Source: an uncultured Candidatus Saccharibacteria bacterium
GTDB lineage: Bacteria > Patescibacteriota > Minisyncoccia > UBA6257 > 2-01-FULL-56-20
DNA: 64,000 nt
Assembly: GCA_964456235.1 (NCBI GenBank)
Contig: CAYWDX010000002.1
Location: 14,061-78,060, forward strand
Direction of reading: 5' to 3'
The notes beneath the pieces were generated by a model that was not told where the DNA came from, ran no database searches, and worked only from the letters and a program-made list of their open reading frames with translations. The translations under genes and the position numbers were made by a program. Shown piece after piece: positions 12,003-14,891 of this stretch. Position 1 is the stretch's first letter. The number at the start of each line of letters is the position of its first letter.

Positions 12003-12575
12003 TTACGAGGCGGCGAAGGAACTGCGTCTGAAATATTTCTGTGCACCAAGGCCGAGGATCAGCAGGCACAGGAGCGCGGCTCCGCTCGGGTAAAAGCGGT
12101 CGCGCACAGCCCACTCTTTCCCGCCGAGAACCGTGAAGGCATTCGCGAGGAAGAACCCGACATAACTACTCATCGGAACTTCGTGCGGCTTCTGGTAGCA
12201 GTCGACGAGGAGGGGAATGGTCGCAATCCCTATCGCGGTAGTGCTCGCGATCGTTGCGACATAGGGTCCGGAGTGCACCCAGATGATCATACAGATCACG
12301 GCGAGGAGCGTGACCGTGGTTTCAAACCATTTCCACGTCCTCTCGCAGCATCGCCAGATGCACAGGGCCGTAACTCCGCTGCCGACCGTATAGATGACCG
12401 GCAGCCAGAAGCTGCCATGTTGGAAAGCGATGCTCGCAGCGACGATGCCGTCGAGCGTTGCCCAGAGGATCCACGTGGCAAAGTTTTGCTTCACGTTGCC
12501 CCGGAGGATCTCGCGGCACAGTGGTGGATACATCAGGATACCGATCAGGTTTCCCAGAAATCCAAACCAGTTCAC
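12003..12575 (-). CDS. Hypothetical integral membrane protein
   Basis: At least five predicted TM helices. A hairpin terminator overlaps the stop codon. Confidence 0.5.
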   Translation of the reverse strand: MNWFGFLGNLIGILMYPPLCREILRGNVKQNFATWILWATLDGIVAASIAFQHGSFWLPVIYTVGSGVTALCIWRCCERTWKWFETTVTLLAVICMIIWVHSGPYVATIASTTAIGIATIPLLVDCYQKPHEVPMSSYVGFFLANAFTVLGGKEWAVRDRFYPSGAALLCLLILGLGAQKYFRRSSFAAS

Positions 12576-12657
12576 GCGAACACCCCTTTCAGTAGAAATT
12601 TCAGAACGTTAGGATCTGGAGATGTGATAACTTATTGCCACTATTTTGTCAAGCTAA

Positions 12658-13275
12658 TTATTTGATTACCAGCAATATCGCTGCCAAAGCTGCCATGCCG
12701 AAATCTTCGACAATCGTAATTTTTGTAAGAGGCACCTTAAGAAAAGTGCCGAGACATACACACTGGAATTCCTCATGCTTTGCGAGTTGAATAGCGACCC
12801 CCGCGCCGCTCAATACCATAATGATGATTTCCGCCCAGAGGAGTTGGGGATTTTGATAATTGATTATCATCGCAATGCCAAAGAAAAGTTCTATGAAAGG
12901 GTATACGTATCCATAGAAGAACACTTTCTTTGCGAGGATGTCGTATGTTGAATATCCGGCGGCGAATCCCTTGAGATCCATGATCTTGAATGCGGAGAAT
13001 ATCAGAAAAAATCCAGCCATAAAGTAACCAATCAGGTGATCTAGAAAAACAGGACCAAACCCATATTGAATAGTTGAGATGATAATGCTTGCGAGTAAAA
13101 TGGAGCCGATGATTGCAATGAGCGGTAGATAGTTCTTCCACGTCAAAGAACCAAGGCCCCTGTCGTCAGAATGGGTGGTTTTTGTTCCCGCGAGAACAAG
13201 CGCCATGCCGCACTTTGGGCAGCGGCCCGGCTCATCGCGAACTATATCGGGATGCATGGGGCAGGTGTATTGCAT
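12658..13275 (-). CDS. Heavy-metal-binding (YTCPMHP / CxxC) domain fused to a MauE/DoxX-like 4-TM membrane protein
   Basis: N-terminal YTCPMHPDI...PGRCPKCGM metal-binding motif, then four TM helices. Confidence 0.55.
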
Positions 13276-13529
13276 GGCTTAATAATACGTCATTTTAAAT
13301 CTAAGTTCTTATCCTGGAGCCACCCATCCTTACAGTCTGGGTTGGGTACACTACCCGGCGAGGCTCTTTGGTCTCTCAAGACTGTACTCTCCGGTCTAGT
13401 ACCGCCACCGTTCAAGCCCTGTAAGCGTTCTTAGGGGGTCGTTGGAGGGGAGAATTGACCCGTCTCGGTCATGGGGATTTAAAAGTCTTCGTTTGACTGA
13501 TTAATTGAGATGGTATTGAATTACTCTAC

Positions 13530-14126
13530 ATGGCAAAAAATAGTAGTGAATCAAATCTTGAAAAGAAGCTCGCTGCAATAAAAGTTATTGCGAAGGAGCT
13601 TGAGGAACTCAATGAAGAAGATCGTGCAGACGTTCTCTCTTTTGTCTTAAAGCAAGTGAAAATTGATGGTCCAATATTGAATGGAGATCATCCACTCCTA
13701 ACTCCGCAGCCAAATTTCCCAATCGTTTCTGGCGGGAACGATACGACTATAAGCGAATCAATGGATGAATTTGTGAGCAAGAAAAAACCCGCTGACCTCT
13801 ATCAACGCGTCACAGTCATCGCCTTCTATTTGAAATTTAAGGAAGGTAAAGACGAATTTAAAAATGCTGAAATGGACAAAATAAATACTGCCCAGGCGCG
13901 ACAACCAAAAATTGGGAATATTGCTGACGTCATTGCTAAAGCTCAAAATCGTTATAGATTTTTGACAAGAGGTATTTCACCTGCGACTCATCAGCTTAGC
14001 ATTCTAGGAGAAGAAATAGTTAGCGCATTGCCTAATCAAGATGAGGTAAAAAGAATTATCAAAGAGGGTAAACCTCAGCGGAAGAGGCGAAAACCGATAA
14101 AGAAAGCCAAAGCAGCTACTGACTAA
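13530..14126 (+). CDS. Hypothetical protein in a low-GC islet, with a Lys/Arg-rich C-terminal tail
   Basis: GC content is far below the window average. The ORF is 198 aa with a basic tail (KPQRKRRKPIKKAK). Confidence 0.5.
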   Translation: MAKNSSESNLEKKLAAIKVIAKELEELNEEDRADVLSFVLKQVKIDGPILNGDHPLLTPQPNFPIVSGGNDTTISESMDEFVSKKKPADLYQRVTVIAFYLKFKEGKDEFKNAEMDKINTAQARQPKIGNIADVIAKAQNRYRFLTRGISPATHQLSILGEEIVSALPNQDEVKRIIKEGKPQRKRRKPIKKAKAATD

Positions 14127-14134
14127 TTTTAAGG

Positions 14135-14662
14135 TTGCTTTTTCACGATGGAGCGATGTCGAATAAAATTTTAGATCGAAGCAAGTGGCCTAGTATTAAA
14201 AACGCGAGTTTTCTAAATGTTTTAGATGCAGTTGCAGACCGCTCTTACAAACGAAAGACAACCGAAGGTTATTTAGCGGCTCTGTTGATTTACCAGCAGT
14301 TGGTAGAGGAAATTGTTCGGATGCTCATCTGGAATTCTGAATTTTTGGTCGAATGTCGAATTTATCCATTTCAGATAAATTTTAGGAAACATGACGAAAA
14401 AATGTTTAGAGAATTGATGCGTGATCTGATGGTTTGCGTTAATTTTCCGCAAAAACAGAAATTGCTTTTTTATTGCCAAAAACTGAATAAAATAAGAAAT
14501 TTGGGTGTTCACAAAATTACGCAACAAAAAAATCTTGCTGAAATACGTAAAACGGTTAAAGATGCGAGGATTATTTATTCTGATATATATAACTTGTTCA
14601 TTCCCGCTCGTGATTATTTTCGTGTCATCTTCGGTCAACTTGAAAAAGAGAATCAAAGATAG
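14135..14662 (+). CDS. Hypothetical protein with an RNx3H (Rx4H HEPN-like) motif, in a low-GC islet
   Basis: All-helical composition. RNLGVHKITQ lies near the C-terminal third. The start may be at the internal Met (about 14156). Confidence 0.45.
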   Translation: MLFHDGAMSNKILDRSKWPSIKNASFLNVLDAVADRSYKRKTTEGYLAALLIYQQLVEEIVRMLIWNSEFLVECRIYPFQINFRKHDEKMFRELMRDLMVCVNFPQKQKLLFYCQKLNKIRNLGVHKITQQKNLAEIRKTVKDARIIYSDIYNLFIPARDYFRVIFGQLEKENQR

Positions 14663-14735
14663 AATCGGAACTTCAGGATTATTCAGGAAGAGAATTGACA
14701 CTCCCCGGTCTTACTCGATACTGCGCTGACTGCTG

Positions 14736-14806
14736 CTGCCGGGCCTGGATTCGAACCAAGATACCCGCGTCCAGAGCGCGGAGTCCTACCATTAGACGAC
14801 CCGGCA
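14736..14806 (-). tRNA. tRNA-Gln (anticodon CUG)
   Basis: Hand-folded cloverleaf. Acceptor UGCCGGG/CCCGGCA, D-stem GUCU/GGAC, anticodon stem CCGCG/CGCGG with loop CUCUGGA, T-arm CUUGG-UUCGAAU-CCAGG, discriminator G. CCA is not encoded. Confidence 0.85.
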
Positions 14807-14891
14807 ATTCATGCGCGCTATGAGTCGCGCCGCGTTGTAAGGGCAGATTATGCCAGCAAAATGCGCTGCAGTCGTATGGTACAATGAAAAC

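Follow-up and report, generated by a model that had tools for sequence, protein, structure and literature searches.

Two co-directional open reading frames (ORFs) beside a tRNA-Gln(CUG) gene form an islet of about 1.2 kb in a 64,000-nucleotide (nt) stretch, hereafter the window, of contig CAYWDX010000002.1 from an uncultured Candidatus Saccharibacteria bacterium (assembly GCA_964456235.1). The islet raised the question of whether the pair, ORF1 and ORF2, is a horizontally acquired cassette, and what its two proteins might do. The defence and addiction modules of Patescibacteria (candidate phyla radiation, CPR) are poorly charted, and their tiny genomes make each accessory gene that is kept informative. 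We found that the cassette moves between genomic contexts, and we consider it probable that the pair is a mobile, integrase-less HEPN RNase toxin or abortive-infection-like module with a new partner.

Both genes lie on the forward strand. ORF1 (13530-14126) encodes an orphan partner protein of 198 amino acids (aa), and ORF2 (14156-14662) encodes 168 aa from its ATG, in all likelihood a HEPN-superfamily protein and a predicted RNase. The longest ORF2 frame opens at TTG 14135 (175 aa), and the homologues start at the ATG at 14156 (168 aa). The two genes are 29 nt apart in the window, and 45-49 nt apart in relatives. The G+C (GC) content of the islet was 0.372, the minimum of the whole window and about 5 standard deviations lower than the mean (1133-nt windows: mean 0.527, standard deviation 0.029). 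The low-GC islet reported in an earlier note, which was made from the letters alone, was therefore confirmed. Its figure of one-third GC held for the last 400 nt only (0.32-0.34), the islet as a whole being nearer 0.37. The GC content at third codon positions (GC3) was 0.33 in both ORF1 and ORF2 compared to 0.67 in the adjacent T2SSE/T2SSF (gspE/pilC-like) genes. The tRNA-Gln(CUG) gene (14735-14806, reverse strand), identified by ARAGORN and Rfam (55.9 bits), is intact and is the resident gene of the locus. Its 3' end points toward ORF2 and lies 72 nt from the ORF2 stop, close to the 70 nt estimated before, and it adjoins the same gspE-like gene in relatives as in the window.

A search with the single ORF2 sequence returned only four relatives, and a profile built on these retrieved more than 130 proteins from a word-indexed database. 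In an exhaustive library, the family reached 283 representatives at 50% identity, 178 of them with E ≤ 1e-10. Nearly all members are single-domain proteins of about 175-185 aa, and they come from many phyla, including Planctomycetota, Hydrogenedentes, Calditrichia, Nitrospinae, Bacteroidota, and Proteobacteria. The earlier description of two orphan ORFs thus applied to ORF1, which was found in Patescibacteria only, and did not apply to ORF2, which belongs to this family of about 280 clusters.

HEPN proteins are defined by an Rx4-6H motif together with an upstream acidic residue in the Ex3[KR] motif of helix 2 (Anantharaman et al., 2013; PMC3710099). In ORF2, the Rx4H motif RNLGVH occupies codons 14495-14512 of the forward strand (R114 at 14495-14497 and H119 at 14510-14512), and the Ex3[KR] motif lies upstream of it on the same strand (E51 at 14306-14308 and R55 at 14318-14320). 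Conservation was calculated over 231 full-length homologues. The motif Arg and His, R114 and H119, were each conserved in 99%, and both were invariant in a 66-sequence alignment. E51 was conserved in 94%, with Asp in a further 5%, while position 55 was Lys or Arg in 84%. Q48 (99%), P71 (97%), and N111 (95%) were also strongly conserved. Because the Rx4H and Ex3[KR] motifs are conserved in these homologues and match the published definition, the ORF2 family carries both HEPN signatures.

The HEPN topology is a four-helix all-alpha core with an insert between helices 2 and 3, and with the motif closing helix 3 (PMC3710099). The AlphaFold2 model of ORF2, based on the 66-sequence alignment, was all-helical, with a predicted local distance difference test score (pLDDT) of 91.4 and a predicted template modelling score (pTM) of 0.87. 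It comprised helices 19-32 and 36-69, an insert with a short helix at 84-93, and helices 100-123 and 127-167. The Rx4H motif (114-119) was placed at the end of core helix 3, which is the HEPN arrangement. An all-helical second protein with RNLGVH, as read from the letters at first, was therefore also what the model returned. Foldseek searches of the PDB with this model gave the HEPN protein 2q00 as the top match, with HepT (7bxo_F) and 2hsb also listed, and in BFVD a MAE_28990-like HEPN ranked second.

The profile searches pointed in the same direction at the level of the family. The Pfam model HEPN_RiboL-PSP (PF18735) matched 13 of the 66 aligned members with a best E of 6.3e-07, and one member, P0049, scored 29.9 bits against the gathering score of 28.4, its match spanning the Rx4H helix. 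Weaker Pfam matches were obtained with the HEPN_Cthe2314, MAE_28990, Csm6_HEPN, Apea, and Swt1 models. Moreover, the PADLOC models CARF_HEPN, Csm6, Csx1, and RTasHEPN (reverse transcriptase-associated HEPN) matched up to 16 of the 66 members, and the sole HEPN profile match of ORF2 of the window itself was to CARF_HEPN (E 1.5e-3). When PDB sequences were searched with the profile of the ORF2 family, no HEPN chain was retrieved. An assignment of ORF2 to the RE_MamI restriction endonucleases (E 2.4e-4) was rejected, as the score was 21.3 bits against a cut-off of 25 and only two of the 66 members matched. With the profile matches of the family and the helix order of the model, we regard ORF2 as very probably a member of the HEPN superfamily. 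Its family appears to be a large, mostly unannotated stand-alone HEPN branch nearest to RiboL-PSP-HEPN and AbiD/AbiF.

ORF1 is a different case. Its N-terminal half (residues 1-76) is acidic and helical with an isoelectric point (pI) of 4-5.3, residues 77-180 form a highly conserved basic domain, and residues 181-198 are the Lys/Arg-rich tail that had been noticed before. No match was found in Pfam, NCBIfam, PHROGs, PADLOC, PDB sequences, phages, plasmids, or IMG/VR, and the AlphaFold2 model was poor (pLDDT 51). Six close homologues were recovered, two of which are placed in Patescibacteria by their source names. A hidden Markov model (HMM) of ORF1 gave matches only directly upstream of the Patescibacterial subclade of ORF2. 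The homologues always directly precede a HEPN-type gene, and fusions of ORF1-like domains to ORF2 homologues were not found.

On one short contig, L162, the gene that follows is a different one, and Abi_C-like. This contig carries P0010, the most distant ORF1 homologue (62% identity), and a 255-aa protein (L162:823-1590) starts 5 nt after it, in the place of ORF2. The protein contains IRNNRDAAH, which fits Rx6H. By BLASTP it matched a hypothetical protein of the Natronomonas pharaonis plasmid PL131 (3e-17), and it is weakly tied to Abi_C via a Latilactobacillus 'abortive infection family protein' that passes the Abi_C cut-off. These matches, from a single short contig, are weak evidence that the 255-aa protein may be of the HEPN type. 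The association of ORF1 with two HEPN-type effectors would then be partner swapping, a modular pattern typical of toxin-antitoxin and defence pairs. A C-terminal winged helix shared between ORF1 and the 255-aa protein was also considered, and it was not supported by hhalign.

The ORF1-ORF2 pair was found in four unrelated genomic contexts. In the window it lies between a HMBD-MauE membrane-protein gene and tRNA-Gln(CUG)/gspE. In L001-4 and L094 it follows rpsI, and its neighbours there are a LexA/S24-N6_N4 methyltransferase and an ORF that is weakly PD-(D/E)XK-like. In L007/8, where the genome has 0.55 GC, it belongs to a low-GC islet of about 1.9 kb and directly follows tRNA-Glu, and in L163 it comes after an N6_N4 methyltransferase and abuts tRNA-Gln(UUG). 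The neighbours on the methyltransferase side (L001:8597-10589 and L163:1006-2541) resemble restriction-modification (R-M) type genes.

DNA similarity between the copies was confined to the two genes and short leaders. The GC content of the cassette was 0.37 in two hosts of about 0.53-0.55 GC and near that of the host in hosts of about 0.35 GC. The cassette therefore moves between contexts, and it is mobile, foreign in composition, and probably horizontally transferred. The earlier proposal of a horizontally acquired, compositionally foreign two-gene module agrees with the GC and GC3 anomaly and with the four contexts. Furthermore, both genes are under purifying selection: the ratio of nonsynonymous to synonymous substitution rates (dN/dS) among the copies was 0.05-0.17 for ORF1 and 0.06-0.10 for ORF2, with synonymous sites saturated. 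A protein identical to that of the window was also recovered from independent assemblies.

The contexts also bear on the possibility that the pair is not an autonomous module and instead serves R-M systems or other defence islands as an accessory, for instance as a HEPN back-up nuclease. The methyltransferases and the PD-(D/E)XK-like ORF beside the cassette in L001-4, L094, and L163 are what such an accessory would have as neighbours. In L011-13 a HEPN_Toprim_N protein adjoins a distant ORF2 homologue, and linkage between HEPN and R-M genes is frequent (PMC3710099). However, in the window and in L007/8 the cassette has no methyltransferase or nuclease as a direct neighbour, and the neighbour families over about 70 ORF2 loci are heterogeneous and include housekeeping genes. 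We therefore consider this explanation highly improbable.

The tRNA-Gln site was compared with that of five relatives that do not have the cassette. In L020, L036, L017, and L014, tRNA-Gln(CUG) lies directly upstream of the gspE homologue, the cassette is absent, and synteny breaks. In L033, where the cassette is likewise absent, the tRNA is about 5 kb from the gspE homologue. Beyond the 3' end of tRNA-Gln, the sequence is unrelated in all five. The islet is thus not fixed at this site with host-like GC, and elsewhere the pair occurs in other contexts. With the HEPN profile matches of the family and the conserved motif Arg and His, none of the three refuting outcomes named in the earlier note came about. 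Integration scars were seen at tRNA 3' ends in relatives. In L014 (about 450-515), the tRNA-Gln 3' end is duplicated over 18 nt at a distance of about 52 nt downstream, and in L036 a 138-aa ORF without a Pfam match (L036:5533-5949) extends into the tRNA-Gln gene. Taken with the variable gene content, these features of L014 and L036 identify the 3' side of tRNA-Gln in this lineage as a hot spot for insertion. The tRNA-Glu 3' end in L007 is repeated exactly over 17 nt, immediately ahead of the cassette islet.

The junction itself was partly conserved. A segment between the cassette and the tRNA 3' end in the window, GATACTGCGCTGACT (14717-14731, forward strand), is common to the junction of the cassette and tRNA-Gln(UUG) in L163, and it is absent from the tRNA-Gln trailers of the cassette-less relatives. 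Directly after tRNA-Gln, the window and L163 have the common junction AGTCA(G/A)CGCAGTATC, and the motif of the cassette junction at the tRNA-Gln 3' end can also be written AGTCARCGCAGTATC. With two cases only, this common junction is a hint that insertion favours a certain site.

In the window, the cassette lies between two copies of an imperfect direct repeat of 21 nt. The left copy, GAGAATTGACCCGTCTCGGTC (13450-13470, forward strand), lies at the transition from GC-rich to AT-rich sequence, and the right copy is GAGAATTGACACTCCCCGGTC (14690-14710, forward strand). The two copies are identical at 17 of 21 positions and 1240 nt apart. The 10-mer core GAGAATTGAC occurs only at these two sites in the 64 kb, and none of 100 shuffles gave two or more. 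The score of the full repeat was reached by 3 of 2000 shuffles and by 20 of 1663 real-sequence controls (about 1%). The 3' half of the left copy, CCCGTCTCGGTC, is also present 5' of the L163 cassette, with a 16/18 match to the L163 leader. No equivalent flanking repeat was found around the cassette in L001, L007, or L163. The repeat, which is unrelated to the tRNA, was rejected as a target duplication, being of marginal significance and absent around the other copies, and it is recorded here as an observation.

A separate element was seen at related tRNA loci and not in the window. It is GC-rich, about 135 nt long, and present at L020:5673-5812, L036:5362-5494, and L007:7161-7293 (minus strand). 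Its copies are 86-87% identical between genomes, while the gspE proteins there match that of the window at only about 70-77%. Its fold has four hairpins with compensatory changes at 4 pairs, and no Rfam family matched. At each locus it lies at most about 300 nt from the tRNA 3' end, with a long perfect hairpin before it, and in L007 it is bracketed by the exact 17-nt tRNA-Glu 3'-end repeat. It may be a tRNA-targeting mini-element or a new Patescibacteria non-coding RNA (ncRNA).

On the other side of the islet, the HMBD-MauE gene (12450-13200) also had a lowered GC content of 0.42-0.46 compared to 0.53. It had no homologue in the loci of the relatives, and the other upstream genes of the window likewise had none in the cassette-less loci. 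Given this GC content and this absence, the variable region may reach past the two-gene cassette. A GC-rich non-coding spacer (13276-13450) separates the HMBD-MauE gene from the cassette, and a 51-nt part of it (13382-13432) is an 80% match to L017:3856-3906. The spacer was rejected as a candidate ncRNA, with no Rfam match and folding z-scores of -1.0 and -0.1, no better than shuffled sequence.

Several findings weigh against the reading of the pair as a mobile HEPN toxin or abortive-infection-like module. For the mobility, no integrase ORF was present within or beside the islet in the ORF list of the window, as the earlier note had stated. No second copy of the 20-nt tRNA-Gln 3' end was found in the 64 kb at up to three mismatches, so the direct repeat that was to mark an att site did not materialize, and an att site derived from tRNA-Gln was rejected. 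For ORF2, no Pfam HEPN model was reached by the protein of the window, with no PF18735 match even at E ≤ 10, and its only Pfam match was the sub-threshold one to RE_MamI. The Foldseek matches to HEPN proteins were not significant (E 0.39-1.1, TM 0.4-0.54). The residue after the motif Arg, which is Asn in ORF2 of the window, is Ile in 61% and Asn in 29% of the family, and this Ile departs from the usual HEPN polar residue (N/D/H). ORF2 of the window also has an unusual residue, Arg85 (14408-14410, forward strand), at a position that is Gly in 95% of the homologues, and this change might attenuate the protein. For ORF1, its length (198 aa) and overall basic character (pI 9.4) are large and basic for an antitoxin, and neither a DNA-binding fold nor any other was assigned. 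Finally, about 70 distant ORF2 loci had neither ORF1 nor a conserved neighbour. The Gly at position 85 belongs to an MFG motif, and the closest cassette copies also keep it.

If the unique G85R change and the fold-search results are taken at face value, ORF2 might be a HEPN-like helical protein that is in decay or not catalytic, and the cassette a neutral hitch-hiker without toxin or defence activity in this genome. The frames are nevertheless intact, the catalytic residues are conserved, and selection among the cassette copies is strong and purifying. The recovery of the identical protein in independent assemblies also speaks against decay. This explanation is very unlikely in our judgement.

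The distribution of ORF1 leads to a more serious alternative. The neighbours of ORF2 homologues were heterogeneous and comprised housekeeping genes, methyltransferases, helicases, and the HEPN_Toprim_N protein, and 70 of 96 distinct neighbour proteins (identical ones removed) matched no other neighbour. A conserved partner for ORF2 across the wider family was thus sought and not found. The family was absent from PLSDB, INPHARED, and IMG/VR. In addition, no tandem-repeat arrays were found in the window, nor by TRF up- or downstream of the ORF2 homologues in 78 loci, and for lack of such arrays a type III RNA antitoxin, as for an AbiF-like toxin, was rejected. ORF2-type proteins are therefore usually solitary, like single-gene HEPN abortive-infection (Abi) proteins, and ORF1 is a lineage-specific addition. 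Since most homologues are solitary, ORF1 is not a universal antitoxin, and the predicted RNase does not in general require a protein antitoxin.

ORF2 could accordingly be read as a self-sufficient single-gene HEPN effector, with ORF1 as an accessory sensor, specificity factor, or DNA/RNA-binding regulator that couples the RNase to a trigger. The solitary homologues with unrelated neighbours suit such an effector, and HEPN RNases are regulated by ligands, single-stranded DNA (ssDNA), partner proteins, RNA, or covalent modification (bioRxiv 10.64898/2026.02.22.705581). The basic ORF1 with its Lys/Arg tail is also compatible with nucleic-acid binding. On the other hand, an antitoxin-toxin pair would account equally well for the partner-first order, for the close spacing of the genes, and for their strict co-inheritance although synonymous divergence is saturated. 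We consider the self-sufficient effector possible and rather unlikely.

The leader of the cassette was promoter-like (13493-13529, forward strand), with TTGACT at 13493-13498, a 17-nt spacer, TTGAAT at 13516-13521, and 8 nt to the ATG of ORF1. When five cassette leaders were aligned, this position had A/T-rich columns and an invariant TTG..T..TT, and a simple sigma-70 scan did not call it. The leader may act as a promoter, and it would then leave a very short 5' untranslated region (UTR) for ORF1, or none.

For the preferred reading, that of a HEPN toxin or abortive-infection-like module, we infer an RNase activity and toxicity for ORF2, a neutralising role for ORF1, and a defence function, or the 'defence or addiction' role suggested at the outset, for the cassette. 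In the proposed mechanism, a small two-gene Patescibacteria operon would have been acquired horizontally and inserted in the variable region 3' of tRNA-Gln. By analogy with characterised HEPN enzymes, ORF2 would dimerise and act as a metal-independent endoribonuclease through R114 and H119, with E51 assisting. ORF1, co-transcribed upstream, would most likely be an antitoxin-like neutraliser or a regulator dedicated to HEPN effectors. Its acidic N-terminal half could contact the basic RNase, while the basic C-terminal domain and tail could bind nucleic acid. The loss or titration of ORF1 by stress or infection would then free the RNase and stop growth, which would be toxin-antitoxin or abortive-infection behaviour.

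The analysis defines a HEPN family of stand-alone proteins, mostly missed by current Pfam models, with about 280 clusters at 50% identity in many phyla. It also defines an orphan partner, ORF1, tied to two different HEPN-type effectors, and a recurrent insertion point at tRNA-Gln. More speculatively, ORF1 may found a new Patescibacteria-specific partner family for HEPN RNases that can pair with either the ORF2 family or an Abi_C-like one, and so with two or more unrelated HEPN families. The cassette would then be a mobile unit of minimal size, able to reach the 3' side of tRNA-Gln without a recombinase of its own, and ORF1 would turn a solitary HEPN effector into a regulated two-component toxin or defence system in ultra-small episymbionts. 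We offer this proposal tentatively. Should ORF1 turn out to be a HEPN regulator or antitoxin of a new class, the known modes of control of HEPN RNases (protein inhibitor, RNA antitoxin, AMPylation, cyclic oligoadenylate, and ssDNA) would be joined by another. Otherwise, the locus is one more ordinary HEPN cassette.

Among known systems, RiboL-PSP-HEPN is the closest in sequence, PF18735 being the nearest profile of the ORF2 family and the Rx4H motif being conserved in both. RiboL-PSP-HEPN is distantly related to AbiD/AbiF (Anantharaman et al., 2013; PMC3710099), and its hallmark is a fusion to endoRNase L-PSP or an operon with ParB (PMC3710099, Table 1). In contrast, ORF2 of the window is below the PF18735 threshold and only a minority of the family matches. 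Over about 70 loci, neither an L-PSP fusion nor a ParB neighbour was seen, and L-PSP and ParB were outside the 25 commonest of 51 neighbour Pfam families. The ORF2 family is instead a stand-alone domain with invariant W-P, Q48, and N111 signatures of its own.

The single-gene Abi HEPN proteins (AbiD, AbiF, AbiJ, AbiU2; ApeA, DARNA) resemble ORF2 in that the effector stands alone or in a tiny module in a variable region, and in their predicted mode, RNA cleavage that leads to growth arrest, which is similar to the one proposed for ORF2. Unlike them, ORF2 has no detectable sequence membership in these families, and its host is an uncultured Patescibacterium.

Type II toxin-antitoxin systems share with the cassette two small co-directional genes, an upstream partner, short spacing, and here co-inheritance in four contexts. 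The pair is also mobile and compositionally foreign, with a partner that seems to swap between two HEPN-type proteins. ORF1 differs in that it matches no known antitoxin family and, at 198 aa, is longer than the presumed toxin. Moreover, this partner is not general to the ORF2 family and is limited to the Patescibacterial subclade. From HepT-MntA (HEPN-MNT, type VII) the pair is distinguished by ORF1, which has no nucleotidyltransferase (NTase) or any other domain match.

Finally, the position on the 3' side of a tRNA, the atypical GC content, the presence/absence polymorphism among relatives, and the integration scars at the same tRNA in relatives are those of tRNA-targeting islands. The cassette departs from such islands in lacking an integrase and a tRNA 3'-end repeat, and in measuring only 1.2 kb. 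Its integrase-less insertion beside tRNA-Gln is a minor variation on tRNA-associated islets. On this comparison, the cassette would work like the known HEPN toxin and Abi modules, and what is new is the HEPN branch of ORF2 and the partner family of ORF1.

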